From Mesotaenium endlicherianum (taxonomy: Eukaryota): DNA of 53,345 nucleotides. Every line of letters begins with the position of its first letter. Position 1 is the first letter of the stretch. Under the pieces are notes generated by a model. The model made no database searches and was not told the DNA's origin. It saw only the letters and a list, made by a program, of their open reading frames with translations. Of the stretch, positions 4,919-26,007 are shown in pieces. The DNA lies in contig WELA01003458.1 in the NCBI GenBank assembly GCA_009602735.1, forward strand, positions 1 through 53,345. The letters run 5' to 3'. A program made the position numbers and the translations under genes.

Positions 4919-4929
4919 TTTTAGAACTT

Positions 4930-7250: not shown

Positions 7251-7260
7251 GACGTTGGTT

Positions 7261-7719: not shown

Positions 7720-7730
7720 GGCTATTGATT

Positions 7731-7853: not shown

Positions 7854-7882
7854 AAATTGAAGTATTGCTGAAAATGATTGCA

Positions 7883-7949
7883 CAAAACTATTCAGACCCC
7901 GCTGCGTTAAGCATGACCTGGGGGATTTAGAACACCTGATTTTAATCAG
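7883..7949 (-). promoter_or_regulatory. cba operon promoter with Crp/Fnr-type sites
   Basis: TAGTTTTG (-) at 7890-7883; half-site GTCAT ending at 7913; perfect palindrome CTGAT-ttta-ATCAG at 7936-7949. Confidence 0.7.
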
Positions 7950-7983
7950 TTGGCATCTTGAGGTGGGTCAGTTTTATCCCGGG

Positions 7984-8049
7984 CTGATGAATATCTGTTG
8001 CATTACTAACATCCGTCACCTGCTGCACAAAAAGTCAATGTTAGTTTTG
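7984..8049 (+). promoter_or_regulatory. hemN promoter with Crp/Fnr-type sites
   Basis: CTGAT-gaat-ATCTG 7984-7997, CTAAC-atcc-GTCAC 8006-8019, TAGTTTTG 8042-8049. Confidence 0.65.
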
Positions 8050-8052
8050 GGC

Positions 8053-9432: not shown

Positions 9433-9446
9433 AAGCCATTTGTTGT

Positions 9447-9875
9447 TCAGATCAAATATGCCAGGCCGTTGTTTACCGGGTTGCACAGGTCAGCGATCTT
9501 CTTGCTGGCAAATATTTTATACGTCAGTTCACGCGCCGCTTTATACTCATAGTGTATGGGACAGGGCCGCGATGCTGAACATTTTTTCAAACCCAGTCCG
9601 CATTGTGTAAACAACTCTTTCCCTTCAATGGCATCGACTATATGAATAATAGGGCGTTTCAACTGCTCTCTGGAAATATGAAATCCACCCGAGGGTCCTT
9701 TCACACTGTTGATGATCCCCGCTCTTGCCAGCGTTTGCAATACCTTGCCCACTGTATGTTCGCTGGCATCTATATAGCCGGCAATTTCCCGGATACCGGC
9801 GTTATCGTTACCGTCCTGTTGAGAAGCCAGGTAAATAACGGCTTTAATGGCTGTCTGACTCATCTGGTTGAGCAT
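9447..9875 (-). CDS. Rrf2 family regulator with three Cys (NsrR-like Fe-S sensor)
   Basis: S.KGPSGGF wing motif; CGLGLKKCSASRPCPIH; last gene of the ric operon. Confidence 0.92.
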   Translation of the reverse strand: MLNQMSQTAIKAVIYLASQQDGNDNAGIREIAGYIDASEHTVGKVLQTLARAGIINSVKGPSGGFHISREQLKRPIIHIVDAIEGKELFTQCGLGLKKCSASRPCPIHYEYKAARELTYKIFASKKIADLCNPVNNGLAYLI

Positions 9876-9879
9876 AGTA

Positions 9880-10203
9880 TCAACGGTTTAAAAAAAGTTT
9901 ACCTGCCTCCGATATCCTGTCGTGCTTCCATGGCGGATCGAAACTCAGGTTGACTGCAATCTGTTCACCGGCAAAAATACTGGACAACACTTTTTCAACA
10001 GCATGGGTAATAGATGCCCCCATGGGACAAAAAGGGGTGGTCAGGGTCATGGTAACTTCTATTTTCTGGCAGGCGTCATCAAAATCCAACCGGTAAACCA
10101 GGCCCAGATCAACAATATTCAATCCGATTTCCGGGTCTATCACTTGTTGAAGCGCCGCCAGTGCAATAGTACACTTAATATTATTGTTGGTCATTACATT
10201 CAT
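9880..10203 (-). CDS. DUF59 / SufT-like metal-sulfur cluster assembly factor
   Basis: VIDPEIGLNIVDLGLVY, MTLTTPFCPMG, FDPPW. Confidence 0.95.
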   Translation of the reverse strand: MNVMTNNNIKCTIALAALQQVIDPEIGLNIVDLGLVYRLDFDDACQKIEVTMTLTTPFCPMGASITHAVEKVLSSIFAGEQIAVNLSFDPPWKHDRISEAGKLFLNR

Positions 10204-11465
10204 GTGTGAACCGGTTGATGCATGAATAGTTTAGCCACATTGAGGTTAAAAAGCAAAGAAGCAATTAACAGCAGTACCGAACCCGTTTGCAGAAATGGGA
10301 TCTGTTCCGTAAAAATGCCTGTCAGAAAAACGCTGAACCCAGTCATGTAAACCAATGCCATCGCCGCAAACCATTTATGACTGTATAGGTTGCCCGGGCC
10401 CTGCTTTTTATCTGAAACCACCGCATCATAGCGCCTTTTGTTCCAGATGATAAAAGGCAGCGTTTTAAATGTCATACCCAATATCAGGGTGGTGATCCAG
10501 CCAAAAAAGATCACAAAGCCATACGCTTTGAATAGCGCCAGTTTACCTGATGATACTCCCGGCGCAGCCAATAGTGACAAGAGAAGCAATACAGGTAAAA
10601 AAGTCATCACAATAGACAGAAGGGATATTTTCACCGGTGTATCGGTTGTTTTGCGAATACGTTCCTGGTATGCCCGCCGGCAGTAGTAACCAAATTGCAG
10701 TATCGCCGTTAACAAGCCGGTAAGAGGTACAAAATACCAGTCCGGGGGCGCCTGTCCCAGGAACAAAATAACAAAAGCAATAAGGCTTGCATTGATGAAC
10801 CAGTAAATGATTTTCAATAAGTGAACACTTTCATATTTCGACAACAGAAACATAGGTATCAGCCTGGTTCCCACGCCTACTATCATCAACAAGAACCAAC
10901 CGGCAATACCCATGTGTGCATGAAGAGAAAGATAATACAGGGAATCTTTTGAAAGTACATTGTTACTGAAATTGAATACCAGCAGCAAACCCACCAATGT
11001 GGTCAGTAATAACCAGCAGGCAGCAGCAACCATGAAAAGTCCATGCATGTTTTGATGCCGGCTCCTGGTATAACTACCCACCTGGTTAATCACATAACAA
11101 GCAACAGATACATTGATCAGTATAGCACCCGCCTGTGCGGGTATACCCATATCGAAAACGTAAAAAGCATATACCAGGAGCGGAATGCCGGCAGCCGCTG
11201 CAAAAAACGAAACATACGCCAACGTTTCGCTGAACAGATCACTTTCGGTAATAACGGGCATCAATTGATAACTGGCGCCCAGGATCATCATAGTGCCCCA
11301 ACCCAGGGCCATACTGTGTGTAACAGCCAATATATGGGGATGAAAATAATGTCCCGTAAATGCCTGAACCGACAAGCAAAGCAATGACATTGCCGCGCAT
11401 AATGATACGGCTGCATAACCATAGAAAGGCAATACTATTGTATGGGGTGTTGTTTTCGCGATCAT
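10200..11465 (-). CDS. Polytopic His-containing membrane protein (distant NnrS / heme-copper subunit I-like)
   Basis: About 12 hydrophobic segments; THSMALGW, LHAHMGIAGW and a third FVIFFGW repeat. Confidence 0.75.
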   Translation of the reverse strand: MIAKTTPHTIVLPFYGYAAVSLCAAMSLLCLSVQAFTGHYFHPHILAVTHSMALGWGTMMILGASYQLMPVITESDLFSETLAYVSFFAAAAGIPLLVYAFYVFDMGIPAQAGAILINVSVACYVINQVGSYTRSRHQNMHGLFMVAAACWLLLTTLVGLLLVFNFSNNVLSKDSLYYLSLHAHMGIAGWFLLMIVGVGTRLIPMFLLSKYESVHLLKIIYWFINASLIAFVILFLGQAPPDWYFVPLTGLLTAILQFGYYCRRAYQERIRKTTDTPVKISLLSIVMTFLPVLLLLSLLAAPGVSSGKLALFKAYGFVIFFGWITTLILGMTFKTLPFIIWNKRRYDAVVSDKKQGPGNLYSHKWFAAMALVYMTGFSVFLTGIFTEQIPFLQTGSVLLLIASLLFNLNVAKLFMHQPVHT

Positions 11466-11469
11466 TAGA

Positions 11470-12264
11470 TCAGCTTTTATAGATCAATAGTTGCACACCT
11501 TCATTTCCCAACTCCCTGATGCGATAACTAAAGCGTCGCTGTTCCAGTTCGGGTAACAGGAACACTGGTACTCTTTTGTGATGAACCAATAACGCCTCGC
11601 CAGGTTCCAGTTGATCCAATGTTTCCAGTATCTTCATCATAGGTAAAGGCATCGCAAGCATCCGCACATCCAATTCACGTAACCGGTGTTCAAAATCCGT
11701 CATTAACCGGTACCAGTCATCATGCATATCAGGTTTATCTTCCGGTATAGTGGTAGTTCCTTCCTTATAAAAAAAGGCTTCTACCACTCCGTTGTGCAAT
11801 GCTGTTGCATAGGAGGCAAATCCCTGTTTTTTTAACAACAGCATTAAAGGAGTAGGTTCAAAACTATTGATGATCTTCAATGCCTGTTGATCCTGTAATT
11901 GTTTCACTTGTTCAAGAATATCGGGAAGTGGATCTCTTCCCGCAGCAATGATGGGTCGCACATCCAGTTCAATGAAGTTGTCCGGGTATATCCGTGCTTC
12001 CGAATGAGTTAATGTTTTTACCGAATCCGCTGCCGTAGTCGTATCCACCTTAAAACCAAGCGGTTCCAGCTTATTGCGAAAATCATCAATGGTACAACCG
12101 GCAACTTTACAAGCCATGGCAACGCTGGTTCTTGCTGCCATCAGCTTGCGGATCAGGGGATTGCGTAATTTCTCAAAATGTGTACTAATGCCCATTATAG
12201 CATCCAATGCTCCCGGGTGTTCCTTGAGTATATTACTGATCTTAGTATTTGCATGAACTTCCAT
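11470..12264 (-). CDS. DUF1858 plus tandem DUF2249 domain protein
   Basis: ELDVRP...GRDP..INSFEPTPL and ELDVRML..PLPM..IL...HKRVPVFL repeats. Start set at ATG 12264. Confidence 0.85.
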   Translation of the reverse strand: MEVHANTKISNILKEHPGALDAIMGISTHFEKLRNPLIRKLMAARTSVAMACKVAGCTIDDFRNKLEPLGFKVDTTTAADSVKTLTHSEARIYPDNFIELDVRPIIAAGRDPLPDILEQVKQLQDQQALKIINSFEPTPLMLLLKKQGFASYATALHNGVVEAFFYKEGTTTIPEDKPDMHDDWYRLMTDFEHRLRELDVRMLAMPLPMMKILETLDQLEPGEALLVHHKRVPVFLLPELEQRRFSYRIRELGNEGVQLLIYKS

Positions 12265-13222
12265 TATCCGTGATTTGTTTTTCCCTCTCCACTGCTTTAG
12301 GGAATAAGATATTATTCTCCAGGTGGATATGCGTATACAGGTCTGTTTCAAATGCCGCTAACATTTTATACAGCAGGCTATAGCTGGCACAAGCATCTTC
12401 CGGAATGGCAAAACCTCCGCTGAGCGTCCTGATCTTATGCATGGCGGTCCCTACCAGCTCGTGTTCCATTTCCATCATGTTGATAGGGTTTTTTACTGTT
12501 CCGAAATGCGCTGCCTGGTGTAATTGAGACTGGTTACGAGCCGCCGCCAGGTCTTTTATGTAAGGGAATAATACTTTTTCCTCCTTCGTCATATGTGCCA
12601 TCATCTCTTCATAAATTACTTCCACCTGCCGCTGTATCTCTGCTAATTCAGGGTGCTCTTTGCCATGTACCCTTAACACTTTCAACGCATATCCCCTGAT
12701 CTCAGGAAGGTTTTTCCGTGTATAAGCATGGTGAACATTAACAATATAATCGGCCAAAAAGCCGGGCTCCCATTCGTTATAAGGAAGTGAAGCTGACACG
12801 GGCGCCTCGTTAGCTTGTTGCAGCTCCTGTTCAATCTTCACTATATCCAATCCTTTTTCCAAACAAGCTTCTTTCACCGTTTTCTTTCCCCCGCAACAGA
12901 AATCAAGTCCATTTTTTTTAAACACTGCTGCTTTGCGCAGGTCTTTTGCCGCTATTTCGCCAATCGTTTCGTCGTTTTCCTCGCTGGAACGCTTGGTAAT
13001 ATTCACTTTCCACCATCGGGGGCCTTGTTCAGTGTATTCCCATTTAAAAATATTTCCTCTCTCCCCCAATAGCTGGTAATACAGGGGCTTGGGGTCATGA
13101 TCGTTATGAATAGTCAATGTTTCTCCGTCATTGAGTTGATCAAAACGGTCGAAAATGGTTGGGTGCTTCTGGCGTGGCTCCAGCATTGTCACATCCAGGA
13201 TATTCTGATTGATTATTTCCAT
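12242..13222 (-). CDS. ric: Iron-sulfur cluster repair di-iron protein with N-terminal DUF2249 domain
   Basis: LDVT..EPRQKHPTIF..NDHDPKPLYYQ (DUF2249), LDFCCGG, HHAY, HMTKEE, EH, HIHLENNILFP. Start ATG 13222 lies downstream of the -7 box. Confidence 0.95.
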   Translation of the reverse strand: MEIINQNILDVTMLEPRQKHPTIFDRFDQLNDGETLTIHNDHDPKPLYYQLLGERGNIFKWEYTEQGPRWWKVNITKRSSEENDETIGEIAAKDLRKAAVFKKNGLDFCCGGKKTVKEACLEKGLDIVKIEQELQQANEAPVSASLPYNEWEPGFLADYIVNVHHAYTRKNLPEIRGYALKVLRVHGKEHPELAEIQRQVEVIYEEMMAHMTKEEKVLFPYIKDLAAARNQSQLHQAAHFGTVKNPINMMEMEHELVGTAMHKIRTLSGGFAIPEDACASYSLLYKMLAAFETDLYTHIHLENNILFPKAVEREKQITDNGSSCKY

Positions 13223-13246
13223 CGTGTTTATTTTTTGATGATAGCA

Positions 13247-13294
13247 CAAAATTAGACTTTTGTCAAAATAAAAGTATTTACTTACTTTTATTTT
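13247..13294 (-). promoter_or_regulatory. ric promoter with overlapping inverted-repeat operator (candidate Rrf2 site)
   Basis: TAATTTTG (-) at 13254-13247; perfect inverted repeat AAAATAAAAGTA-N6-TACTTTTATTTT at 13265-13294. Confidence 0.7.
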
Positions 13295-13392: not shown

Positions 13393-14607
13393 GTGCAAAT
13401 CGGAACATCTATACAACACCCTTCTTTACCCGTGTTGGAAAAGCGTTTATACCGGATCTCCTTATTCAATCTCTTTCTTGTTTCGCTTATTGGCTTGTAT
13501 CTGCGTTCTGCCCCGGTAGCAAGCATCTGGACCGGGTCGTATAAAAATATATTACACGCCCATTCTCATTTCGCATTTGGCGGGTGGATCATGCCGGCGC
13601 TGGTAGCCTTGATCATCCGGTTCTTTCCTGAACTGGCCAACACTATTACATACAAGCATTGGAGGAATCTTTCGGTACTGCTACTGATAGCCGCATATGG
13701 CATGCTGGGCAGTTTCCCCTTCCAGGGATATGGTCCGGTCAGTATTTGCTTTTCTACATTGTCTATCATTGCCTCTTTTTATCTCGCCTGGCTGGTGTGG
13801 CGCGCGAGGGTTTCAGGCAAAGACAGTATTGCGCATCAATTTCTCCGGGCAGGTCTGTTTTACCTGGTGCTTTCATCAGCCGGCCCGTTCGCCACTGCAC
13901 CTCTTATTGCCATGGGCAAGGCTGGTAGCGCATTATATTTCAACGTCATTTATTTTTATCTGCACTTTCAATACAATGGCTGGTTCACTTTTGCCTTACT
14001 GGCTGTATTATATAAAATAACCGGTCATGCACCAGGACGTTATAGTAAAAACGCCTTCGCATTATTTAACATCTCCTGTATTCCCGCTTATTTTCTTTCG
14101 GTATTGTGGAGCCATCCCGCTCCTGCATTTTTCATAATAGCCACAGTAGCTGCTATTTTACAGTTGATTGCGCTGTTTTACCTGCTGGCCGATATCGTTG
14201 ACAATAACAGTAACCGCCGGCTGAATGGTTTGGTAAGGTTATCGCTGGGCATATTTGCCATGAAGATCATCCTGCAGTTACTCGGCGCTTTCCCAGCCAT
14301 TGCAGACATGAGTTATCTTCACCGGAATTTTATCATAGCTTATCTCCACCTGGTATTATTAGGCTTCGTCACTTTCTTCATCATGGGTGCAATGCATTTG
14401 CATGAATCACCGACGGAAAGGTCTTCCAAAAAATGGAGCATTTTATTCATTGCTACCTGGGTATTCACAGAAGGATTGTTGTTATTGCAGGCCACAGGAG
14501 AAGTGGCAGATTTTCAGATACCCAATTTTACAACATGGTTGTTCCTTGCAAGCTGTTTTTTCCCGGTAGCCATTCTGGGTATCTGGGTTAAAGATCTTTC
14601 TTCCTGA
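13393..14607 (+). CDS. Polytopic His-containing membrane protein (distant NnrS / heme-copper subunit I-like)
   Basis: About 12 TM segments with HAHSHFAFGGW, YLHFQYNGWF and YLHLVLLGF. The ORF is open from 13351; the start is uncertain and GTG 13393 was chosen from the promoter position. Confidence 0.75.
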   Translation: MQIGTSIQHPSLPVLEKRLYRISLFNLFLVSLIGLYLRSAPVASIWTGSYKNILHAHSHFAFGGWIMPALVALIIRFFPELANTITYKHWRNLSVLLLIAAYGMLGSFPFQGYGPVSICFSTLSIIASFYLAWLVWRARVSGKDSIAHQFLRAGLFYLVLSSAGPFATAPLIAMGKAGSALYFNVIYFYLHFQYNGWFTFALLAVLYKITGHAPGRYSKNAFALFNISCIPAYFLSVLWSHPAPAFFIIATVAAILQLIALFYLLADIVDNNSNRRLNGLVRLSLGIFAMKIILQLLGAFPAIADMSYLHRNFIIAYLHLVLLGFVTFFIMGAMHLHESPTERSSKKWSILFIATWVFTEGLLLLQATGEVADFQIPNFTTWLFLASCFFPVAILGIWVKDLSS

Positions 14608-15355
14608 ATATTTTCAGTGTAAGGAGCAAGGGCAGCGCTATCCACAGCAGCATAATACCCGTGGTAAAAGCAATACCCCAACCACTTCCGAAAAAAGATT
14701 TATATAAAGCACCTGTATATCCCATCAGGGCGCTTACATCCATCTTCAGCATAATGAAAATGCGCCCAAGATCTATCGGGTTGAGTGCAGATAATAACAA
14801 AGTGAATTTTTCCATCGGGTAATCGCTGAAAGCGAATAATATCAGTAAAACAAGTCCGTCGTATATCAATGCAAAATAAAACCATAATAATAAAGCGGCG
14901 CCAATACCTTTTGCCTTATCCCTTGCTTTTACAGAAGCAAGGAATGCGATAGAAGTAAAAGCCAATGTGAGTGCCGATCCGGTAAGCAAAAACGCAATAC
15001 CTGTTGCATCAAAAGCATAAATCAATACCGGTATCCCCACTCCCACCAAATAAGCAGCGGTCAGAGATGCCGATACACCTACGTATTCGCTTAAAAGTAT
15101 CCGGGTGCGGCTTAATGGCTGCGACAGCATCAGTTCTATAAATTCATAAGAGTTATAATAATGTATAGTGGTGAAGATCATACTAATCAAGGGGATGACG
15201 ATCAGCACAATGGTAAGCAGGCTCATCAGGGCTTTACTTTGATTCTCTTCCAGTTGAAACAAGCTAAGCGAAACCAACAGCAAGAATAGCGTATATACAA
15301 TGATTACCCTGTTACGGAGAATATCATACAGCACATAACGTGATAGTTTTCGCAT
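14588..15355 (-). CDS. nosY: NosY ABC transporter permease
   Basis: ELMLSQPLSR and LNPIDLGR motifs, multi-TM, follows nosF. Confidence 0.9.
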   Translation of the reverse strand: MRKLSRYVLYDILRNRVIIVYTLFLLLVSLSLFQLEENQSKALMSLLTIVLIVIPLISMIFTTIHYYNSYEFIELMLSQPLSRTRILLSEYVGVSASLTAAYLVGVGIPVLIYAFDATGIAFLLTGSALTLAFTSIAFLASVKARDKAKGIGAALLLWFYFALIYDGLVLLILFAFSDYPMEKFTLLLSALNPIDLGRIFIMLKMDVSALMGYTGALYKSFFGSGWGIAFTTGIMLLWIALPLLLTLKIFRKKDL

Positions 15356-15363
15356 AAAGCTTA

Positions 15364-16131
15364 TTAATTTGATTGATTATTTGTTTCCAGCATCAACACC
15401 TCGTCAATCCACAATGCGCTCTTTTTCTCTCCGTTCATGATACGGGCGATGGCCTTTCCTAATTTCTCTTCGCCAGTTTCTTTTCGCAGCTGTTCTATGC
15501 CTTTCAAAAAGATCATTTTCCCTTCCTGCAAATACATAACATGAGTGGTAAGATCATCGAGGTCACTGAGAATATGTGAAGTGATGAGGATGAGTTTGTT
15601 TTTTTGTTTCTCCTCCATGATCTTGGCTTTCAATATTTCCGATGAAAGCGGGTCGAGACCGGCGGTTGGTTCATCCAGGATGAGGATATCGGGATTGAAA
15701 TAAAAAGCCAGGGCTGCACTCACTTTCTGCCTGGTGCCGCCACTCAGCGTGCGCATGGGCTTGTCAAAAATAGAAGCCAGGTTGAATTTCACGAGCAGGT
15801 CGGTATCCAGCGCTGCCTCCGTTTTCATCCGGATGTCTTTCATCATAGTAAACAATTGCCCTACCCTCATATTATCAGGATAACGGCCTATCTGTGGCAT
15901 ATAACCGATGTGTTCCCGGTAAGCCGGGTCGTTCCCAATCTGTTGCCGGTTGATGAATATTTTTCCGGCATCTGGTCTTACCAGGCCCAATAAGGTTTTG
16001 ATAAGTGTTGTTTTCCCCGACCCGTTAGGTCCGATCAGGGATACCACCTGCCCCTCTGCAAAGAGCGCATTGATATCATCCAACACTTGCAGTCGCTTGA
16101 ATTTCTTTTTCAGGTTTTCTATTCTGATCAT
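15364..16131 (-). CDS. nosF: NosF ABC ATPase
   Basis: GPNGSGKTT, LSGGTRQK, ILILDEPTAGLDP; nos context. Confidence 0.92.
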   Translation of the reverse strand: MIRIENLKKKFKRLQVLDDINALFAEGQVVSLIGPNGSGKTTLIKTLLGLVRPDAGKIFINRQQIGNDPAYREHIGYMPQIGRYPDNMRVGQLFTMMKDIRMKTEAALDTDLLVKFNLASIFDKPMRTLSGGTRQKVSAALAFYFNPDILILDEPTAGLDPLSSEILKAKIMEEKQKNKLILITSHILSDLDDLTTHVMYLQEGKMIFLKGIEQLRKETGEEKLGKAIARIMNGEKKSALWIDEVLMLETNNQSN

Positions 16132-17360
16132 ATTTTCAATGGCTTTATCATCGGCTGACGGTCTACCAGGTTCTCCGGTGTGAGGCTGGGTATGGCCTTT
16201 TCCGCCTTATCGAGAAGGGTTACCATGAAGCTTCTCATAAGGATCATGGTTCCGGGCGTTTGCTCCACAATCATGGAATACATACTTACCGGGTGATAGG
16301 GTACGTCGCCAACCCCGTTTCTATCGATATCATAGCCTTCATATTTATCCCAATAATTGTTGTGCAATTTGTTCAGCACCATGGTGCCATTAGTAGCCAA
16401 ATCGAAACTGTTGCCAAAAAAATTGTTGTGATGAAAAACGTTATCGTCGCAACTCGCCTGTACTTTAACCGCCCAGCCGTTATTTCTGAAAATATTGCGC
16501 TCTATCTCTATCCTGCTCGCGCCCTCCATATAAATACCCGTTGTGTTCTTAAGGAATAAGTTGCTAACAATATGGCTATCTGTGATCTCTTTCAGCAAAA
16601 GTCCATATGACGAAGCGCCCCAGTTTGCTTCAAAGTGGTTACGCTCCATGGTCACATGTTTGGAATACATCACAGCAACCCCGGCTCCGTTGTTACGAAA
16701 AATATTTTCGATATAATGATCACCATGGGAAAACATGAAATGCAAGCCATACCGGATATTTTTTTCACTCAGGTTCTTCCGGATAACCGATTCCGTTACA
16801 AATTCAAAATAGATGCCATCGCGGTAGCCGGTTACCTGGTTGCCTTCTATCAATGCATGGTTACTCTTCCATAAATGAATGCCATTGCCGGTCAATTGCT
16901 CCGTCTTGGGTATCCCTACAATCCTGTTGTTGCGGATAGTGCAGTAGGCTGCATTAGAAATATGAAAAGCGAAATAAGCATCATATACCAGGTTATCTTC
17001 CAGTAATACATAACTGGCATCAATCAGTTTTACCGCAGCATAATCGTTCAATGCCGAATAACCCGCATGATGGAATTGCAATTTTTTAATAGTAACATGG
17101 CTCCCGCTGATAACGAGTAATTCCTGTTTATGATCGCCATCCAGTATGGTATTGCCTTCACCCAAAACAGTGACCGGCCGGGTAATCACTATCCTGCCTT
17201 CTTTGTATACGCCATTGCGGAGCCTTATGGTATCGCCGTCCCTGGCCAGTTGCACAGCGGCTGTCAGTGTTTTCACAGGTTGCCCAACGCCCGCTACAAT
17301 GGTGCGGGCCAGCGTTACATGTGAACAGATCAACCACGATATGAGGAATAAAAACCGCAT
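16128..17360 (-). CDS. nosD: NosD maturation protein
   Basis: GNGIHLW, RDGIY, RYGLHFMFS, NYWDKYEGYD...GVGD.PY. Confidence 0.96.
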   Translation of the reverse strand: MRFLFLISWLICSHVTLARTIVAGVGQPVKTLTAAVQLARDGDTIRLRNGVYKEGRIVITRPVTVLGEGNTILDGDHKQELLVISGSHVTIKKLQFHHAGYSALNDYAAVKLIDASYVLLEDNLVYDAYFAFHISNAAYCTIRNNRIVGIPKTEQLTGNGIHLWKSNHALIEGNQVTGYRDGIYFEFVTESVIRKNLSEKNIRYGLHFMFSHGDHYIENIFRNNGAGVAVMYSKHVTMERNHFEANWGASSYGLLLKEITDSHIVSNLFLKNTTGIYMEGASRIEIERNIFRNNGWAVKVQASCDDNVFHHNNFFGNSFDLATNGTMVLNKLHNNYWDKYEGYDIDRNGVGDVPYHPVSMYSMIVEQTPGTMILMRSFMVTLLDKAEKAIPSLTPENLVDRQPMIKPLKI

Positions 17361-17364
17361 TGCT

Positions 17365-18396
17365 TTATTTCAATTTAGCCTGTACAGCTTCCCAGTCCAG
17401 TACAACATAAGATGATGTATCAACTATTTTTGCCTGGGCCGCAGCTTTTGTTTTAAAGCCGGCTGTATTGCCACCCATCGGACTTTTCAATGTGTTACCG
17501 TTTAAAAAACTGGCATCCTGGGCCTTGAGAAAAGTATTCGGCTGATCAAAATCAACGACCCAGGATTGCGCCAGTCCATTATCTTTCCGGTCATTCATGC
17601 GCATATAGGAAATCATACATTTCAGGTCATCGAATTTGTATGTCTTTCCTTTTCCAGTGATGATCTCGCCTCCATACCGGGTATCGCTGATGCCCATTTT
17701 ACAGAACGTGCAAAAATCTTTTCCTGGCTGAAAGGGTTCAGGTGATGCAGGAGAACATGCGTTCAGCAAAAACAGCATTATGCAAACTACAGCCACAGCA
17801 GGCGCCGCCCGCCTGCTCGCTTTTCTATGGCGATACCATTCCATAAACCATACCACGAAAGAGAGACAGCCGGCAGCGATCACTACCCATCCACCCACAC
17901 CGGGCAGGGAATAGGCATCGAAATTCAACAACCGCTTATGCCCTAACAATGGAGGCTGATAGGAAAGTCCCGGCACTTGTATAGGCGCTTTTGGATCCAG
18001 GTTATGCCCGTAATCATAGCCCCACTGGTAAAAATCATACATAGCCAGTAACCCGCCCAGGAGGGTGAGTAATAAATACAGGAATAAGACCTTTCGCTTG
18101 CCGGTAATAGCTACTGTTACACCCAGTAACATGAAAAACAACACCACATAAGGCAGGAAACGGAATTCCGGAAACATAGCAACTGTAATATGTTTCATGC
18201 CTATATAATGATTGAGGCCGTTGATCACATCCACATCACCCGATATTCCGTTGATCCATATATTCATGGTCAGTCCCTCCGGATACTGTGGTGCAAAAAG
18301 ATCAATACGCCATGCAGGAAGAAAGAAAACAACAATCAATGCTCCTGATGCAAATGCCACCAGTATCCGCGATACAATACTCAATTGATTGTTCAT
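17365..18396 (-). CDS. nosL: NosB-like membrane domain fused to NosL
   Basis: APQYPEGL, INGLNHYIGM, YGHNLDP.API (NosB-like) followed by CTFCKM, FDDLKCM, SPMGG (NosL). Confidence 0.9.
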   Translation of the reverse strand: MNNQLSIVSRILVAFASGALIVVFFLPAWRIDLFAPQYPEGLTMNIWINGISGDVDVINGLNHYIGMKHITVAMFPEFRFLPYVVLFFMLLGVTVAITGKRKVLFLYLLLTLLGGLLAMYDFYQWGYDYGHNLDPKAPIQVPGLSYQPPLLGHKRLLNFDAYSLPGVGGWVVIAAGCLSFVVWFMEWYRHRKASRRAAPAVAVVCIMLFLLNACSPASPEPFQPGKDFCTFCKMGISDTRYGGEIITGKGKTYKFDDLKCMISYMRMNDRKDNGLAQSWVVDFDQPNTFLKAQDASFLNGNTLKSPMGGNTAGFKTKAAAQAKIVDTSSYVVLDWEAVQAKLK

Positions 18397-18411
18397 ATTG
18401 ATAGGTTAATA

Positions 18412-18439
18412 TGCGGTCTCTTATTATAAAGAGACCGCA
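18412..18439 (-). terminator. Stem-loop between nosZ and nosL (partial terminator or mRNA stabiliser)
   Basis: 11-bp perfect stem tgcggtctctt / aagagaccgca with 6-nt loop and a weak U-tract. Confidence 0.6.
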
Positions 18440-18449
18440 CAAGATTTGC

Positions 18450-20459
18450 TTATTTGGTTTTTCCATCGGTTGCTTTATAATCAGCCGCCGCTTTAATTGT
18501 ACCGGTTCCGTATATGATAGGAACATTCGATCCGGGAGCGCTTACCCTAATGTATCCTTGCATTTCCTGGTGAAGTGCAGAACAGAAGTCGGTGCAATAG
18601 AAGGGAAATACACCCGCTTTTTCAGGTACCCATTTCAATGTTTGTGTTTCGCCCGGCATGATCAGCAGCTCTGCATTGTTGGCGCCCTTGATGGCAAAGC
18701 CATGCGGAATGTCCCAGTCCTGCTCCAGGTTGGTAACATGGAAATAGACGGTTTCTCCCAGCTTCACCCCTTCTATATTATCAGGCGTAAAGTGCGAACG
18801 GATAGCAGTCATGTACACATGCACTTCATTGCCTTTGCGTTCTACCCTCGTATAATTATCGCCTTTGGCTGCAGCCGGGTGGGCATTTTCTTCTATCTTA
18901 TAGATCTTCTGGCTGTTCTTCATTACCAGCTCTGCAGGGATGGCCTCTCCATAGTGCGGTTCTCCTATGGTAGGGAAATCAAGCAGCAATTTCATCTTAT
19001 CACCGCTGATATCATAGAGCTGTGCACTTTGCGACAACTCCGGTCCGGTAGGCAGGTAACGGTCTTTCGTGATCTTGTTATAAGCGATCACATACTTACC
19101 CCAGGGTTTCCGGGTAGGTCCGCCTGGAACACTCAGGTGTCCGATAGAATAATAGGTAGGTACACGATCGAGTACTTTCAGGTCTTTGATATTCCATTTC
19201 ACAATTTCCGATGAAACAAAGAAAGAAGTATACGCATTTCCCTGATCGTCGAACTCTGTATGCAGCGGGCCTAATCCCGGTTTCTGCACTTCTCCGTGCA
19301 AGACCGCATCGTACTTCAACACAGGGATATCGTCATACGTGCCATCGAAATTTTTATCGGCAATCGCTTTCTGTATTTTGGTGAAGGAAAACACCGGAAT
19401 GGTAGCCGCCAGCTTGCCACTGCCTACTATGTATTCACCGGTAGGATCGGTATCGCACCCGTGGGGTGATTTGGGACAGGGCATGAAATAAACCATATCG
19501 GGACAATCTTTTGGATCCAGTACCAATACTTCATTCATAGTAGTTGAAGTAGCTGAGTGTTTTTTCTCGTCGTATTGATTATGGGTATATTTCACTGTTT
19601 TTTTAACGCCTTTACCGGCTTTCAGGTATTCTTCTGCTTTTTTCCAGTTCACTGCCATAATAAAATCCTTATCCTTTTGAGATGCATTCACTTCGAGCAA
19701 AGTGTTGGCTTTTTCTGAGTTATAGCAACTGAAGAATACCCAGCCATGTGACTTTCCTTTGCCGGCACGCGCCAGGTCGAAGTTGACACCAGGGGTCAGT
19801 ATCTGGAAAGCCAGGTTCATTTCACCTGAATTTTTATCTATGTTGATGAAGCTAACTGTTCCTTTGAAATTTTGTTTATAAGAACTAATCGGTACATCGG
19901 TATGATCTCCGAGGGGTATACTGAAACGGGTGCCTGCCACTACATACTCTGAATTTTCCGTAATAAATGGTGACGAGTGGTTGCCGGCACTATTGGGTAT
20001 CTCAATAATTTCAACAGTGCGGAAAGTTTTCAGGTCAACCCTTGCGATACGTGGCGTATTGTTGGCATTGGCAAACACCCATCTTCCATCGTGCAGGCCA
20101 TCTGTTTCTGATAATGCAATATGGTGCAAGTCATCCCAGGGAATAAAGCCGTTGGATGTGTTCAGCATGGCTTTGCTTTCTTCGCTGTAGCCATATCCTT
20201 TTTCCGGATCTACAGAGAAAACCGGGATCACACGGAGCAGCCGGCCGGATGGCAAACCATAGACCGACATCTGTCCGCTGAATCCTCCCGAAACAAAATC
20301 GTAAAACTCATCGTATTTACCGGGTGCAACATAGGTTTTCAAAGCAGCATCACCGCTGATAGCAGCCTGTGAGCCTTTGGGTTTGCATCCCAACATTTGC
20401 AAGGATGCACCTGCCAGCACCAGTGTTGCGAGCAGGGTTTTGTGGGAAAAGAATTTCAT
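18450..20459 (-). CDS. nosZ: Sec-dependent (clade II) nitrous-oxide reductase
   Basis: CuZ His motifs DLHH, GNH, PKSPHG, GPLH, IGH, EPH; CuA PHGF and CTDFCSALHQEM; no twin-arginine signal; SGGFSGQ..VYGLPSGR. Confidence 0.98.
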   Translation of the reverse strand: MKFFSHKTLLATLVLAGASLQMLGCKPKGSQAAISGDAALKTYVAPGKYDEFYDFVSGGFSGQMSVYGLPSGRLLRVIPVFSVDPEKGYGYSEESKAMLNTSNGFIPWDDLHHIALSETDGLHDGRWVFANANNTPRIARVDLKTFRTVEIIEIPNSAGNHSSPFITENSEYVVAGTRFSIPLGDHTDVPISSYKQNFKGTVSFINIDKNSGEMNLAFQILTPGVNFDLARAGKGKSHGWVFFSCYNSEKANTLLEVNASQKDKDFIMAVNWKKAEEYLKAGKGVKKTVKYTHNQYDEKKHSATSTTMNEVLVLDPKDCPDMVYFMPCPKSPHGCDTDPTGEYIVGSGKLAATIPVFSFTKIQKAIADKNFDGTYDDIPVLKYDAVLHGEVQKPGLGPLHTEFDDQGNAYTSFFVSSEIVKWNIKDLKVLDRVPTYYSIGHLSVPGGPTRKPWGKYVIAYNKITKDRYLPTGPELSQSAQLYDISGDKMKLLLDFPTIGEPHYGEAIPAELVMKNSQKIYKIEENAHPAAAKGDNYTRVERKGNEVHVYMTAIRSHFTPDNIEGVKLGETVYFHVTNLEQDWDIPHGFAIKGANNAELLIMPGETQTLKWVPEKAGVFPFYCTDFCSALHQEMQGYIRVSAPGSNVPIIYGTGTIKAAADYKATDGKTK

Positions 20460-20483
20460 CTGTCTGTTATTTGCGTTATAGGA

Positions 20484-20954
20484 TTATTTTTCTCCGTCGT
20501 TGTTCCGCATGAATTCCAGCACTTTGCGGGCGTCTTCTTTGACCAGGTTCTGGTTGGGCATGCGCACCATACACTGTTCCAGCAGTTTTTGTGCATCGGG
20601 GTCCTTCTCCAGCATCATGTCTACGTTGGTAATCATATTCATGATCCAAACAGGCTTTCTGCGTTTGGTAACATCTTTCCATCCTGGTCCCACCAGTTTC
20701 TCACCGCTAAGGCGGTGGCAGGACTGGCACTTCATTTCATAAATGCCTTTACCGGCGCTTACCCATTCTGCATTCAATGGGTTTGAAACAATTACATCGG
20801 ATTCTTTTAATTCGGCGCCATGTGTTTCAGGTTGGTTTTTGGTCATTTCCTGAACATCTACCGGTTTTTCGTCTTTTTTAACCCCTTCTGAACAAGCCAC
20901 TGCCAGTAGGGTTCCGGAGAGTAAACAGATCGTTAATGGTCGGATGATTTGCAT
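20484..20954 (-). CDS. Lipoprotein cytochrome c at the head of the nos operon
   Basis: LAVAC lipobox, CQSCH, VRMPNQ. Start set at ATG 20954. Confidence 0.92.
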   Translation of the reverse strand: MQIIRPLTICLLSGTLLAVACSEGVKKDEKPVDVQEMTKNQPETHGAELKESDVIVSNPLNAEWVSAGKGIYEMKCQSCHRLSGEKLVGPGWKDVTKRRKPVWIMNMITNVDMMLEKDPDAQKLLEQCMVRMPNQNLVKEDARKVLEFMRNNDGEK

Positions 20955-21011
20955 GGTATTATTTTTTAGTGAATGCACATTTATTAAGAGAGTCTTTTGT
21001 CTTTTATTGAT

Positions 21012-21107
21012 CAAAAGTATCCTGCCTGCCGTGCCTCATATATGACCAATCTCAAAAAAGTGAATGATCTTTATCAGGAAGGATGGAAACAGGCATTTTT
21101 ATTTTTG
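21012..21107. promoter_or_regulatory. Divergent nos / RIC-paralog promoters sharing two Crp/Fnr-type sites
   Basis: TACTTTTG (-) 21019-21012; ATGAC-caat-CTCAA 21042-21055; ATGAT-cttt-ATCAG 21064-21077; TATTTTTG (+) 21100-21107. Confidence 0.72.
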
Positions 21108-21112
21108 TTTCC

Positions 21113-21883
21113 ATGACGCCATCCAACATTTCTGGCAAAGACGATCAGTTGCCATTGATAAATAAGCAAATGCCTGTTACGGAAATTGTGCAGAAAGATT
21201 ACCGCACAGCCGATGTATTTCTCAAATATGATATCGAATTCTGCTGCGGAGGCAAATGGCCGCTGGAAATGGTATGCGAATCCAAGCAACTGGATACTGC
21301 TGTTATATTACTTGAACTGGAAGAAGCCTGCCGGTTGATACAACTCCCGCAAGGGAGCAGGTTTGAAGACTGGGGCACCGGCTTTCTGATCGATTTCATT
21401 CAAAATGTTTATCACCGGTATTTTAAAAAAGCGCTGGAGACAACTGTCAATTATACCAATCGCTTCCTCGAAGGGCATCTCAAAAAATTTCCCGAGTTAG
21501 AAAAAACGCCGGAGATTCTTCACAAGCTGTCATTGGCCATCAACAAACGCATGAACAACGAAGAAGAATCTTTCTTTCCTTATATCAAACAGGTTACCAA
21601 CGCTTACCTGCGTAATGAATCGTATGCAGGTTTGCTGGTAAAAACATTGCGCAAACCATGGCAGGAAACCATGCAGCAGGAATACAGCGAAGCAATAAAA
21701 TGGCTGGATGAGCTGCGTTCTATTACAAAAGATTACTATTTACCTGATAATGCCTGTACCACACACCGCGTTAGCTTTTTAAAATTGCGGGAATTGGATC
21801 ATGAACTCACGCAATACCTGCAATTGGAGCATACCATATTATTACCCAGGGTTGTTGAGGTGGAACAGGCGCTGCTGGCCTGA
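21113..21883 (+). CDS. RIC-like protein (ScdA_N/DUF542 plus degenerate hemerythrin)
   Basis: IEFCCGG, FFPYI, PDNACTT; collinear with the ric copy but several His ligands are replaced. Start set at ATG 21113. Confidence 0.85.
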   Translation: MTPSNISGKDDQLPLINKQMPVTEIVQKDYRTADVFLKYDIEFCCGGKWPLEMVCESKQLDTAVILLELEEACRLIQLPQGSRFEDWGTGFLIDFIQNVYHRYFKKALETTVNYTNRFLEGHLKKFPELEKTPEILHKLSLAINKRMNNEEESFFPYIKQVTNAYLRNESYAGLLVKTLRKPWQETMQQEYSEAIKWLDELRSITKDYYLPDNACTTHRVSFLKLRELDHELTQYLQLEHTILLPRVVEVEQALLA

Positions 21884-21941
21884 TGCAGATTACAATCACT
21901 TTATTATATTTACAAACAGATTTATTCCTACTATTTGCGCT

Positions 21942-23180
21942 ATGCTGGACCAGGCTCATATGACGTCTTTATTCGAGAATGCCACCGAAGGTATCATCCT
22001 TACGGGCCATCACGGCAATATCGTATTGGTAAACCCTGCAGCAGAGCGTATGTTTGGCTACCAGAATAAAGAGATCATTGGTCAGCCCATTGAAATATTG
22101 ATCCCTGCGCAGTTCAAGGCACACCATCACCATTTGAGAGATGGGTTTTACAAAACCCCTTCCAACCGTGTGATGGGCCAGGGGCGGGATCTGTTTGGCA
22201 AAAAAAAAGACGGCTCAAATATTCCCGTTGAAGTGAGCCTGAGTCATTATAAAAAAGACGACGAACTGTTCGTGATCGCCTTTATCGTAGACATTACACG
22301 CCGGAAAGAGATCGAACAGAATATGCTGGAGCAGCAAAAAGAACTGCAAAAAGTATCTACCGAGATCAGGAAGCTGAACGCCGAGCTGGAAGTGAAAGTA
22401 GAAGAACGAACGGTTATCCTTAAAGAAGCGCTTCAAAAACTGGAACAGTCGCAAAGAGAGCTGAGCGAAGCGCTTGATAAAGAAAAACAATTGAGTGAGA
22501 TCAAAAGCCGTTTTGTTTCTATGGCTTCGCATGAATTCAGAACGCCTCTCAGCACCGTTTTATCTTCCGCTTCGCTATTAGCTAAATATACCACTACCGA
22601 AGAGCAGGAAAAACGGAGCAGGCATATCGATAAGATCAAAAGCTCTGTACGCCACCTGAATGATATACTGGAAGATTTTTTATCCCTCGGAAAGTTGGAT
22701 GAAGGAAAAGTAGCAATATCCATCTCAGGATTCGATCTCAAATCATTCATCGATGACACCACGGAAGATATGAAGGGTCTGTTGAAAAAAGGGCAGCATA
22801 TCCAGGTGGATTATAGCGGGGAGCATTTCATTCATTCTGATAAAAAATTATTGCGGAATATTACCATTAACCTCATTACCAATGCCATTAAGTTTTCCGA
22901 TGAAGACAGTGGTATCAGCATACAGACCTCCGTTAACGATGAAATTGCCTCCATTACGGTAACTGATCATGGTATCGGTATTGCACCTGAAGACCAGGTG
23001 CATTTATTTTCCAGTTTCTTCCGGGGAGCCAATGCCAACAATATTGCCGGTACCGGGCTGGGGCTGCATATTGTGAAACGCTATACCGATCTGCTGCAAG
23101 GTCAAACAAAATTGGAAAGTGAACTCCAAAAAGGAACACGTGTAACCATATCCATTCCTGTAAATCATCCTGCTTCATGA
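21942..23180 (+). CDS. Cytoplasmic PAS sensor histidine kinase (FixL-like)
   Basis: NPAAERMFGY...IG..IEILIP....HH......RVMGQGR..GKKKDGS..PVEVSLS; H-box SHEFRTPL; NAIKF, DHGIG, GTGLGL; no TM segment. Confidence 0.93.
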   Translation: MLDQAHMTSLFENATEGIILTGHHGNIVLVNPAAERMFGYQNKEIIGQPIEILIPAQFKAHHHHLRDGFYKTPSNRVMGQGRDLFGKKKDGSNIPVEVSLSHYKKDDELFVIAFIVDITRRKEIEQNMLEQQKELQKVSTEIRKLNAELEVKVEERTVILKEALQKLEQSQRELSEALDKEKQLSEIKSRFVSMASHEFRTPLSTVLSSASLLAKYTTTEEQEKRSRHIDKIKSSVRHLNDILEDFLSLGKLDEGKVAISISGFDLKSFIDDTTEDMKGLLKKGQHIQVDYSGEHFIHSDKKLLRNITINLITNAIKFSDEDSGISIQTSVNDEIASITVTDHGIGIAPEDQVHLFSSFFRGANANNIAGTGLGLHIVKRYTDLLQGQTKLESELQKGTRVTISIPVNHPAS

Positions 23181-24232
23181 AAACCATCTTAGTCATCGAC
23201 GATAATACAGATATACGCGACAATACTGCGGAAATCCTGGAAATGTCCGGTTACAAAACATTTACTGCCGAAAACGGTAAGAAGGGTGTAGAGGTAGCCA
23301 TCAGGGAAAAGCCAGACCTGATCGTTTGCGATATTATGATGCCCGAGCTCGATGGATATGGGGTACTGCACCTGCTCCGCAAAAACCCCCAGACGCAATT
23401 CACTCCCTTTATTTTTCTTACAGCCAAAACAGAACGTGCCGATCTTAGGAAAGGTATGGAGATGGGGGCTGATGATTATATCACGAAGCCTTTTGAAGAC
23501 ATTGAACTGCTGAATGCCATTGAAGTGAGGCTGAAAAAAATACAGTTTCTGGGACATCATTACGCTATGTCGCCATCCGGTATCAGCCAGTTCCTGAAAG
23601 ATGTAAAAGATACGGGGAGTTTTGGTCAGCTGGCAGAGCAATACAGCATCGAAACATACAGCAAAAAACAACCTTTATATCATGAGGGAAAGCGCCCCCG
23701 CTATCTCTATTACCTCGTAAGGGGGAAGGTGAAAGCTTTTAAAATACATGAAGACGGCAAAGAATATATTACCGATATTTTCAGCGACGGCGATTTCATC
23801 GGATACCATGCATTGATCAACGATTCGAATTATGCAGACAGTACCATGATACTGGAGGAAGCGGAGATCATGCAGATCCCCAGGGAAGATTTTTTGCAGA
23901 TGATCTATAAAGACATCCAGGTGGCCGCCAAATTCATACACATCATTACACAAAACATCAAAGAGAAAGAAGAAAGGCTTATCAGCCTGGCTTACAGTTC
24001 TCTCAGAAAACGTGTAGCAAAAGCTCTGGTAGACATTCATAGTAAATACAACAGCAATGGGGGTTCGAACCCCATTGAAATATCCCGGGACGATATTGCT
24101 CATTACATTGGTACTGCAACGGAATCACTCATTCGCACCCTTAGCGATTTTAAAGCAGAAAAACTGATACAGATCAAAGAAAGCAAGATCATCATTACCG
24201 ATATCGGCAAGTTGCAGAACCTGTTGTATTAA
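23177..24232 (+). CDS. Response regulator: REC plus cNMP-binding-like plus Crp/Fnr HTH
   Basis: VIDD..CDIMMP..LTAK..ITKPF receiver; SRDDIAHYIGTATESLIRTLSDF Crp HTH; ATGA overlap with the kinase. Confidence 0.93.
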   Translation: MKTILVIDDNTDIRDNTAEILEMSGYKTFTAENGKKGVEVAIREKPDLIVCDIMMPELDGYGVLHLLRKNPQTQFTPFIFLTAKTERADLRKGMEMGADDYITKPFEDIELLNAIEVRLKKIQFLGHHYAMSPSGISQFLKDVKDTGSFGQLAEQYSIETYSKKQPLYHEGKRPRYLYYLVRGKVKAFKIHEDGKEYITDIFSDGDFIGYHALINDSNYADSTMILEEAEIMQIPREDFLQMIYKDIQVAAKFIHIITQNIKEKEERLISLAYSSLRKRVAKALVDIHSKYNSNGGSNPIEISRDDIAHYIGTATESLIRTLSDFKAEKLIQIKESKIIITDIGKLQNLLY

Positions 24233-24684
24233 AACCACGACTCAATACTGTCTTCTTCCTGCGGCACTCCTTTCTGGACGCCTGTTACCGGCTCGGACTT
24301 TAAAGGCGCGATGCTTTTGGGACGTGTTTTTTTATGTTGTATCCGGGCTTCTTCTACCTGGGCGCCTTCTTCAATATCCAGTACAGGGCAGTTGAGTTTA
24401 CCCCTGATACGCGCAGTATTGGCAATGACGGCCTTCTTACTGCTGGAAATATCTCCTTCCACTGTTCCGAATACCAGCAGGTCAGACGCATCTATATTCC
24501 CATTGACCACTCCGGTTTCGCCAATTACCAGCTTATCCTCTGCAACGATATCACCCATCACCGTGCCGTCGATCCTTCCTGCTGTGGCAGCGTTGATGTT
24601 TCCGTGTACGATCACTCCCCTGGAAAGAAAAAAGCCAGCGGTATGTGCACTTTGTAAAATATTTTTCAGACTTAACAGGCTCAT
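24229..24684 (-). CDS. Bactofilin (polymer-forming cytoskeletal protein)
   Basis: Beta-helix repeats GRIDGTVMGDI..LVIGETGVVNGNI.A..L.VFG.VEGDI.....ARIRG.L....LDIEEGA. Confidence 0.9.
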   Translation of the reverse strand: MSLLSLKNILQSAHTAGFFLSRGVIVHGNINAATAGRIDGTVMGDIVAEDKLVIGETGVVNGNIDASDLLVFGTVEGDISSSKKAVIANTARIRGKLNCPVLDIEEGAQVEEARIQHKKTRPKSIAPLKSEPVTGVQKGVPQEEDSIESWF

Positions 24685-25754
24685 TGCTTATGGGGAGTGG
24701 GTGTGGGAGTAGCTGGCGTCAGGTCTTTATCCTGGAATACCGATACCGTAGTGCTTGAATTCCCAATGTCGATGCCCACACTTCGCTGCTGCTTGCCATC
24801 GGATATACGGAATGAATTATACAGGTAACCAATGCTGGCCAGTTTTTCAGGTTCTGGCGCCACTTCCACCTGGATACTTCCATTGAATTCATTTTTAAAC
24901 GCTTCAACCAGCTCCGGGTAATAAGCGCCGCCACCCATGAGGTAAATTTTTTCACAGATTTCAAAATCCTGGTCGTTGAAATACTTGTTCAGCAGCAAAT
25001 AGATCACTTCCCTGAAATACTGGTTGAGTATACTTTTGCGCAAACCTTTGATATCTACATTTTCACGGTTGATGAAAATAGACCCCTTGCGAAACGCATC
25101 ATCCAATTGGTGCACGTTTTTCATTTTGAGGTAATAGCGCTTGCTTAACTCCTGGTGAAGATTATCGATGGCATATTGTAATCCATAAGAGCTGAAGCAG
25201 GTGCGGTGTACGAGCCCGTTTTCCGTTGCCATCCCTCCTTCAATGGTTCCAAAGCCCAGGCTGATGGCAATGAAATTCGTAGGAGGTTTGTTGCCGAGTA
25301 TTTTTTTCAGTCCGATGATACATCCTACGATCTCCGGTATGACATCAAAATTATCAACATCGAATGTGGTTCGTTTAACACTTCCATTTACATTATAGGT
25401 CTGGGTATCGTATTCAGCCATGAAATGCCTTTTACTGAGGAATTGTTCAGCGTTTGTCTTGTACACACTGTACGTAGAAAACGGAAAACCCATTGTAACA
25501 GCAACGGGTTGTTCTACTTGTGCGGCTACGGTAACAAGCGCCGATTTAAACAATACTTCATAGTCTTCCAGTTGTGGTGAAGCATTGGTGACATGGTTGG
25601 GATTGACACCGGCTCTTTTTGCCAGGTTGCCCACCATGTACCAGGTGTCTTCTTTTTTGATTTTTAATCCGTTCAGCAAGTCCTTAGCAGAATTTTCGGT
25701 ATTGCCGAAGGTGGTTTCCAGCACACTGGGGAAGTTAACAGTTAATACTTTCAT
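24681..25754 (-). CDS. ParM/StbA-like actin-family ATPase, apparently circularly permuted
   Basis: FPSV, YMVG..A, TMGFP, VIPE (connect-1), ISLGFGT (phosphate-2), LMGGGA (adenosine), LASIGY (connect-2), then VGIDIGNSSTTV (phosphate-1-like) near the C-terminus. Confidence 0.85.
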   Translation of the reverse strand: MKVLTVNFPSVLETTFGNTENSAKDLLNGLKIKKEDTWYMVGNLAKRAGVNPNHVTNASPQLEDYEVLFKSALVTVAAQVEQPVAVTMGFPFSTYSVYKTNAEQFLSKRHFMAEYDTQTYNVNGSVKRTTFDVDNFDVIPEIVGCIIGLKKILGNKPPTNFIAISLGFGTIEGGMATENGLVHRTCFSSYGLQYAIDNLHQELSKRYYLKMKNVHQLDDAFRKGSIFINRENVDIKGLRKSILNQYFREVIYLLLNKYFNDQDFEICEKIYLMGGGAYYPELVEAFKNEFNGSIQVEVAPEPEKLASIGYLYNSFRISDGKQQRSVGIDIGNSSTTVSVFQDKDLTPATPTPTPHKQ

Positions 25755-25950
25755 CTAATACTTTATTTTAATAGTCAGGTAGACAGGGGAAAGGGCACTC
25801 AATTCAGAGTAAGTAGAGTTGATGCAATAGCAAGTGTTCTTTAAGTATTAGTATGGGCAGAAATATGCTACCAATATCAAGCCAAATTTGTTTTGGCAAG
25901 TAATTATTCTAATAAATAATTGATAAATTATCTTGAATTTCATTAAAATC

Positions 25951-25991
25951 AAGGAGCCCTGGCCAGCATGCTGCACTGACCAGGGCTCCTT
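25951..25991 (-). terminator. Hairpin after the glycan operon
   Basis: aaggagccctgg / ccagggctcctt 12-bp stem just downstream of the 26008 stop. Confidence 0.7.
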
Positions 25992-26007
25992 ACCGGAAGA
26001 CTTTTCT

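Follow-up and report, generated by a model that had tools for sequence, protein, structure and literature searches.

Does this locus encode an actin with its phosphate-1 hairpin at the C-terminus instead of the N-terminus, and, if so, what might such a protein do in the cell? In the proteins of the actin, MreB, ParM and Hsp70 kind, the usual order of motifs is the phosphate-1 hairpin, FPS strand, connect-1, phosphate-2, adenosine and connect-2. The window, by which we mean the whole stretch of 53,345 nucleotides analysed here, carries an open reading frame which had been read from its letters alone as a circularly permuted member of this class: the predicted protein begins at the FPS strand (MKVLTVNFPSV), and its phosphate-1 motif, VGIDIGNSSTTV, lies at residues 326–337 (nt 24779–24744). 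The motifs VIPE, ISLGFGT, LMGGGA and LASIGY and the C-terminal phosphate-1 were all found at the positions that this sequence-only reading had assigned to them, and the features of the locus are collected in Table 1.

Table 1. Coordinates of the permuted actin, its partner gene and adjoining elements in the window.
Feature	Position (nt)	Strand	Basis or remark
Circularly permuted ParM/Ta0583-type actin (P0001), 357 aa	24681–25754	minus	ORF, Pfam, AF2, structural matches
In-frame TAG abutting the actin ATG	25755–25757	minus	sequence
New actin N-terminus, FPS strand (res 1–11)	25722–25754	minus	equals residue ~18–30 of canonical actins
Actin strand beta4 (res 84–90), with V86	25485–25505	minus	AF2 model, covariation with I328
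Actin connect-1 VIPE (res 138–141)	25332–25343	minus	E141 invariant
Actin phosphate-2 ISLGFGTIE (ISLGFGT, res 164–170)	25239–25265	minus	S165 and E172 each in place of Asp
Actin adenosine motif LMGGGA (res 272–277)	24924–24941	minus	sequence, conservation
Actin connect-2 LASIGY (res 305–310)	24825–24842	minus	where canonical actin ends
Relocated phosphate-1 hairpin (res 325–340)	24735–24782	minus	linker from connect-2 of fixed length
Bactofilin, 151 aa	24229–24684	minus	PF04519 E 2.6e-23; ATGA overlap with actin stop
Bactofilin terminal W150–F151, candidate actin-binding motif	24232–24237	minus	invariant in close loci; role inferred
19-bp terminator-like hairpin 3' of the upstream DUF3472 gene	25950–25992	minus	sequence scan

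The window is ordinary chromosome, with a nitrous-oxide reductase cluster, a terminal oxidase, RecQ and sugar catabolism, and the closest named record comes from Sediminibacterium magnilacihabitans (99% protein identity). In three of four public runs the stretch was covered by a single contig without indel or joint (two of these match exactly and may have supplied the window), so that it does not represent an assembly error; no RNA data set was listed as containing it. The actin and the bactofilin gene likely form a two-gene operon bounded by the upstream terminator-like hairpin and a downstream convergent gene; a sigma-70 promoter scan gave 4 matches against 3.9 expected, which is the level of chance. 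The convergent neighbours (21801–24232, plus strand) encode a PAS histidine kinase and a response regulator with Crp/Fnr output domains, overlap the bactofilin by 4 nt at the stops and recur beside the pair only in loci L003 and L004. Within the response-regulator gene, at 24055–24077, there is a perfect short inverted repeat, terminator-like on the minus strand and about 150 nt past the bactofilin stop. Further away, the nitrous-oxide reductase cluster (14588–21014, minus strand) is composed of a cytochrome c-like ORF, nosZ, a nosL fusion, nosD and ABC transporter genes, and 4328–13249, with terminal oxidase subunits I and II, SCO1, cytochrome c, radical SAM and DUF2249/ScdA/hemerythrin genes, is a region of low-oxygen or nitric-oxide stress.

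A search for homologs of the window actin returned 302, and conservation was counted in the 120 listed. In all 120 the C-terminal DxG on which the permuted reading depends is retained as G[IVLM]D[IL]GN, and in 119 it lies 20 residues after the connect-2 Gly; a phosphate-1-like motif occurs within the first 25 residues of none. Residues G327, D329, G331 and N332 are invariant among 97 aligned homologs which, taken together with the conservation in 120 of 120 homologs listed, means that the C-terminal motif is not a chance occurrence. A hidden N-terminal extension or a frameshift was also considered and ruled out, in agreement with the earlier claim, by the TAG directly before the ATG and by a survey of homologous loci, in 56 of 81 of which the frame is open for at most 17 codons upstream of the FPS Phe; only three phosphate-1-like matches, scattered, occur in any frame of the 210 nt upstream across the 81 loci. 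The ASKHA (actin/Hsp70) fold is described, in the available text of PMC1079889, as marked by phosphate-1, phosphate-2 and adenosine motifs. All three are present and conserved here, phosphate-2 with Ser for Asp, and the canonical order with an N-terminal phosphate-1 is not followed, the motif being C-terminal in each of the 120 listed homologs.

Profile matches place the chain in the same way. Pfam ALP_N (PF17989) matches above cut-off (E 8.5e-11) from profile position 18 of 148 at actin residue 5, so the N-terminal 17 profile positions are absent from the window protein; an NCBIfam search gave sub-threshold matches only, and PDB sequence searches with P0001 and A1 found no relative. The AF2 model of the actin (pLDDT 86.9, pTM 0.87) has the two-domain actin fold, with Z 20–28 against actin, MreB, ParM and Hsp70, and its tail is a two-strand hairpin (strands 325–330 and 334–340, block pLDDT 97 and 93). 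The best Foldseek rows were Ta0583, pCBH ParM and CorM. In sequential structural alignments, model residue 1–2 pairs with residue 18–23 of Ta0583, pCBH ParM, Dh-cParM1, DnaK and actin and the alignments end at model residue 317–323, leaving unaligned the first hairpin of the targets and the last hairpin of the model; for Dh-cParM1, model residues 2–322 align with chain residues 23–364 (VIA Z 27.6, rmsd 2.9, 306 aligned). Both termini of actin lie in subdomain IA, which makes relocation of the hairpin plausible. The tail hairpin would lie in the nucleotide cleft, and it almost certainly fills the beta1–beta2 slot of subdomain IA, so that the ATP site would be complete.

Two tests of chain order are consistent with this placement. 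When P0001 was scored against a profile built from 36 canonical relatives, the native order gave 137.3 bits over model positions 23–324, and moving the hairpin to the front raised the score to 146.7 bits over positions 5–324, against 138.9 bits for the best of 20 shuffled hairpins used as controls; the re-ordered chain beat the best shuffle in 132 of 151 proteins and failed to do so in 19. Covariation was computed from 284 permuted sequences (57,291 pairs), a shallow set (Neff about 91) that is not independent of the alignment used by AF2. The pair V86–I328, which connects the C-terminal hairpin (I328) with strand beta4 (V86), ranks first of the 57,291 (z 12.2), third with other weights and 8 to 23 across three half samples, and most other top pairs defy interpretation. 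In the sheet order of the actin fold, beta1 adjoins beta4. The earlier proposal that the beta1–beta2 hairpin has moved to the C-terminus is thereby borne out by conservation, re-ordering, a confidently modelled two-strand tail and covariation with beta4, and we conclude that the window ORF is a ParM/Ta0583-type actin with a C-terminal phosphate-1 hairpin. That the protein is instead a truncated, unpermuted actin, with a tail motif produced by chance or by misassembly, is hardly credible, since, although FtsA profile positions 1–20 match actin residues 326–345 only weakly and below cut-off (E 0.028), the conservation in all listed homologs, the re-ordering and covariation results, the independent contigs, and the short upstream frames with their few scattered matches speak against it.

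A profile search of 1.84 billion representatives yielded 176 matches, 150 of them listed. Among the listed matches, 70 representatives are at least 290 aa long, of which 36 count as canonical, defined by an N-terminal D-x-G and a chain that stops at connect-2, and 31 as permuted, with 3 unassigned. Permutation commonly arises by duplication and trimming. No protein with phosphate-1 at both ends, and hence no duplication intermediate, was seen among these 70; proteins of 715–2040 aa likewise yielded neither tandem nor fused long forms, which is a weak negative. Trees, all unrooted, were built from the protein bodies alone, without the hairpin. The careful tree was computed under LG+G4 from 74 rows, after five long canonical rows had been taken out; it supports the main permuted group (36 members) at 99/95 and a plasmid group of seven, on a long branch, at 100/100, and it places all the canonical rows on one side (94/87); in a quick mixture tree of all 79 rows, the branch that parts the canonical rows has support 37. 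These unrooted trees are compatible with a single origin of the permutation. The permuted family occurs in 21 of 401 genomes of the phylum, 5 of 301 of the order and 1 of 41 relatives, a distribution that is patchy and accessory, and several genomes, G001 among them, hold two paralogs. The permuted order persists down to about 20% identity within the family. Database records label the homologs 'ParM/StbA family protein', leaving the chain order unremarked, and the plasmid copies 'hypothetical'. At one locus (L043) the actin ORF is just 262 aa long and is without the FPS start, which probably reflects a break or sequence error in that assembly.

The partner gene encodes a beta-helical bactofilin (PF04519, 82.5 bits against a cut-off of 27.9), modelled as a beta-helix over residues ~18–113, with pLDDT about 90 over residues 21–100, followed by a disordered acidic tail or linker. 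Its N-terminal peptide is short and basic (net charge +1.8 on average in 59 homologs) and is amphipathic in the window (p 0.003), but reaches significance in only 20% of the 59 homologs, the starts of which had been assigned by a script. Bactofilins attach to the membrane through an N-terminal peptide and polymerise without nucleotide, according to the available text of PMC12448750. A set of 82 close loci, of which 80 were retained from 119 genome hits and two came from G001, was searched with a bactofilin profile built from those same loci, with Pfam confirming the window copy and both G001 copies. In all 82 a bactofilin lies directly 3' of the actin, each of the two G001 paralogs having its own, and the other neighbours vary, with no conserved third gene across the set. 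The linked bactofilins end in WF in 81 and in WI in one. Phylum-wide, a bactofilin is encoded within 1.5 kb at 17 of 24 permuted-actin loci; 12 of these have W as one of the two final residues, 3 end in F and 2 show neither.

The two genes could be merely co-transcribed, with the WF tail binding a third protein and the actin acting independently. In 7 of the 24 phylum-wide loci no bactofilin was found within 1.5 kb, and six of these, when extended to about 6 kb, still had none, so that the permuted actin can occur alone, as this alternative would have it. Set against this is the tail itself: none of 15 bactofilins unlinked to actin has a terminal W, in contrast to the near-universal WF of the linked close loci, although these loci are non-independent kin and no statistical test attaches to the comparison. 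We consider mere co-transcription improbable. A complex prediction of actin 1–345 with bactofilin 116–151, ATP and Mg, run without alignments, gave a score of 0.03 and a mark of 0.34 and so weighs neither for nor against binding.

Several loci show other arrangements. In L118:3–3051 (G433 C9), which adjoins a helix-hairpin-helix gene, a cut-off permuted actin and a full one are followed by two bactofilins without aromatic tails, and L116:4950–8547 has an M23 peptidase, a permuted actin, a TPR protein and a bactofilin, then ATP synthase genes. L109–L114 hold permuted actins without an adjacent bactofilin; three of them have an OmpA-like or related outer-membrane gene downstream, and a long pentapeptide-repeat gene lies directly upstream in two. 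G001 further encodes two divergently oriented bactofilins with neither an actin nor a W tail (L141/L142, C1 about 3,178,600–3,179,500).

More distant relatives occur on plasmids. A search with P0250 returned nine plasmid records, eight from Aeromonas and one from Pigmentibacter; P0001 had no match in plasmids and phages, P0189 and P0190 none in plasmids and P0250 none in phages, and four viral-contig scans found no full-length relative. In the four plasmid loci fetched, a permuted actin of 339–347 aa is followed immediately by an ORF of 93–123 aa, and in another permuted branch, from metagenome loci, the same slot holds two related ORFs of 116 aa (40% identity over 68 aa). By size and position these small ORFs look ParR-like; a Pfam search of the plasmid-locus ORFs gave no assignment, and the Atlas lead for the small ORF, MetJ, scored 0.80, below the 0.9 bar. 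Genes of tra or mob type lie near three of the Aeromonas loci. The Pigmentibacter element (L130, AP029162.1, 44.8 kb) has weak matches to Mu transposase and baseplate J and is likely a phage-plasmid; its actin reads Q-x-G-x-G-D at phosphate-2. Upstream repeats were sought in 7 regions at 2 word lengths (6- and 7-mer) and stood out only in L129 (AAGATGT x4, p 0.003) and L132 (p 0.04); they are clear in only one of the six regions other than the window, and parC is hence not established for the plasmid group.

Measured against ParMRC, the window system has a ParM-type subunit (ALP_N match; nearest solved structures ParMs), with a bactofilin in the slot of the adjacent ParR gene both in the window and in 82/82 close loci. 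The pair might nevertheless position DNA, with the ParM-like actin working through an unlinked DNA-binding adaptor and the bactofilin as a polar scaffold. The ParM–ParR-like gene order of the plasmid relatives fits such a role, as do, in the available texts, the existence of chromosomal ParMs with ParR (PMC12270681) and the help that Myxococcus bactofilins give to chromosome segregation (bioRxiv 10.1101/617639). Counting against it, the 82 loci share no third gene, most relatives lack the genes, and the 253 nt upstream in the window contain no over-represented 6-mer (p 0.84) or 7-mer (p 1.0) that could mark parC repeats, although a distant or degenerate site could have escaped this count. DNA positioning is in our view quite unlikely.

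The active site bears on what the actin itself may do. At connect-1, Gln in 35 of 36 canonical relatives is replaced by E141 in all 36 of the main permuted group; at phosphate-2, Asp in 34 of 36 gives way to S165 in 36 of 36, upholding the unusual Ser that had been remarked on from the window alone; and the Asp that follows it (30 of 36) becomes E172 in 35 of 36. The exchange of Gln/Asp/Asp for Glu/Ser/Glu keeps the acid count around the metal, which suggests compensation rather than decay, and E141 would be the catalytic residue. The Lys seven residues after the phosphate-1 Asp is absent from the main permuted clade. MreB and Hsp70 likewise lack it. In the plasmid relatives the C-terminal hairpin retains the canonical Lys (D-x-G-N-x-x-x-K, 4/4 fetched), and this is independent evidence that the tail is a genuine phosphate-1 hairpin. 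D329, E141, G167-G169-T170-E172 and the adenosine glycines are kept down to about 20% identity, and ATP binding and hydrolysis by the window actin are predicted from these residues. The phosphate-2 Ser and the missing Lys could also mean that the permuted fold serves as a slow or non-polymerising nucleotide switch or scaffold controlling bactofilin assembly, the more so as bactofilins polymerise without nucleotide (PMC12448750, available text) and a regulator would be useful. This we regard as rather unlikely: the best structural matches are all filament-forming ParM-type proteins, the active-site residues persist to about 20% identity, and the lack of the Lys is common to MreB and Hsp70.

Among known systems, the fold of the window actin is that of the ParM/Alp-type proteins Dh-cParM1 (PDB 8x1i, PMC12270681), pCBH ParM (6ixw, 6izr) and Ta0583 (2fsj), at Z 24.7–27.6, rmsd 2.6–2.9 over 289–306 residues and 16–18% identity, and Dh-cParM1 is likewise chromosomal. 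The available text of PMC12270681 names a closed beta-barrel as a ParM feature. The window actin differs from these ParMs in beginning at their residue 18–23 with phosphate-1 at the end, in the Ser at phosphate-2, in having a bactofilin in place of ParR and in that parC-like repeats were not detected. CorMR of Anabaena is the best functional analogue of the pair. CorM (PDB 9rmi, Z 24.5) is a chromosomal ParM derivative with a co-encoded partner, and in the available part of the preprint (bioRxiv 10.1101/2025.06.27.661541) CorR binds membrane lipid by an N-terminal amphipathic helix and recruits CorM by C-terminal residues 150–162. CorM, however, is not permuted at the same point, model residue 1 aligning with CorM 60 after its N-terminal extension, and CorR is a ParR-derived ribbon-helix-helix protein whereas the partner here is a beta-helical bactofilin, which may, by analogy, work like CorR though it is not one. 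With Caulobacter BacA and other bactofilins (PF04519; PMC12448750, available text) it has in common the beta-helix core and the short basic N-terminal peptide, and it is set apart by the invariant WF at its C-terminus and by its constant association with an actin gene. BeeR (PDB 8r2n, Z 22.4) and MamK (PDB 5ljv, Z 20.9) are also chromosomal, lineage-restricted bacterial actins but are canonical in order and structurally more remote, with no bactofilin partner mentioned in the available text of PMC11929497.

The sequence-only reading knew of no natural actin with this topology, and the open literature searched for a permuted actin or an actin–bactofilin operon contained no description of either, although surveys of Alp or ParM families in supplements or subscription journals could list such proteins. 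In their available texts, PMC12270681 has no occurrence of 'permut', 'Bacteroid' or 'bactofilin' and the CorMR preprint none of 'permut' or 'bactofilin', and the checked terms are absent from the first 300,000 characters of PMC7203096; where other checked papers speak of circular permutation, they mean other proteins or the general phenomenon. The family is thus apparently an undescribed variant of ParM-type actins, paired with what may be a novel sort of partner.

Our preferred explanation is that the window encodes a permuted ParM/Ta0583-type actin forming ATP-dependent filaments that are tethered near the membrane by the WF tail of the co-encoded bactofilin, a reading that we see as evenly poised between holding and failing as a whole. 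The actin would most likely bind ATP with an intact site and polymerise as its ParM-type relatives do. The bactofilin likely stands in for ParR on Bacteroidota chromosomes, where it would combine an N-terminal membrane peptide, a polymerising core and a C-terminal actin-binding motif. The lineage may derive from plasmid-type ParM–ParR partition pairs, the trees being unrooted, and the bactofilin would have taken the adaptor role much as CorR serves CorM. We predict that the pair serves as an accessory cytoskeleton for cell shape or positioning and does not segregate DNA. More tentatively, with the chances somewhat against it, we hypothesize that the permuted lineage arose once among plasmid and phage-plasmid ParMs and was domesticated on Bacteroidota chromosomes with bactofilin replacing ParR, giving a cytoskeleton of two polymers, with a static beta-helical filament bound to the membrane and holding a dynamic actin filament by the WF tail.

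Proteins of the actin/Hsp70 fold are usually assumed to start with the phosphate-1 hairpin, and this family shows that the fold naturally tolerates rewiring. The C-terminal position of phosphate-1 explains why permuted actins are under-called by profile searches, and the family offers a natural experiment on the influence of chain order on folding, closure of the nucleotide cleft and filament dynamics. If the bactofilin binds the actin, the pair would provide a direct link between two classes of bacterial filament, in two small soluble proteins.
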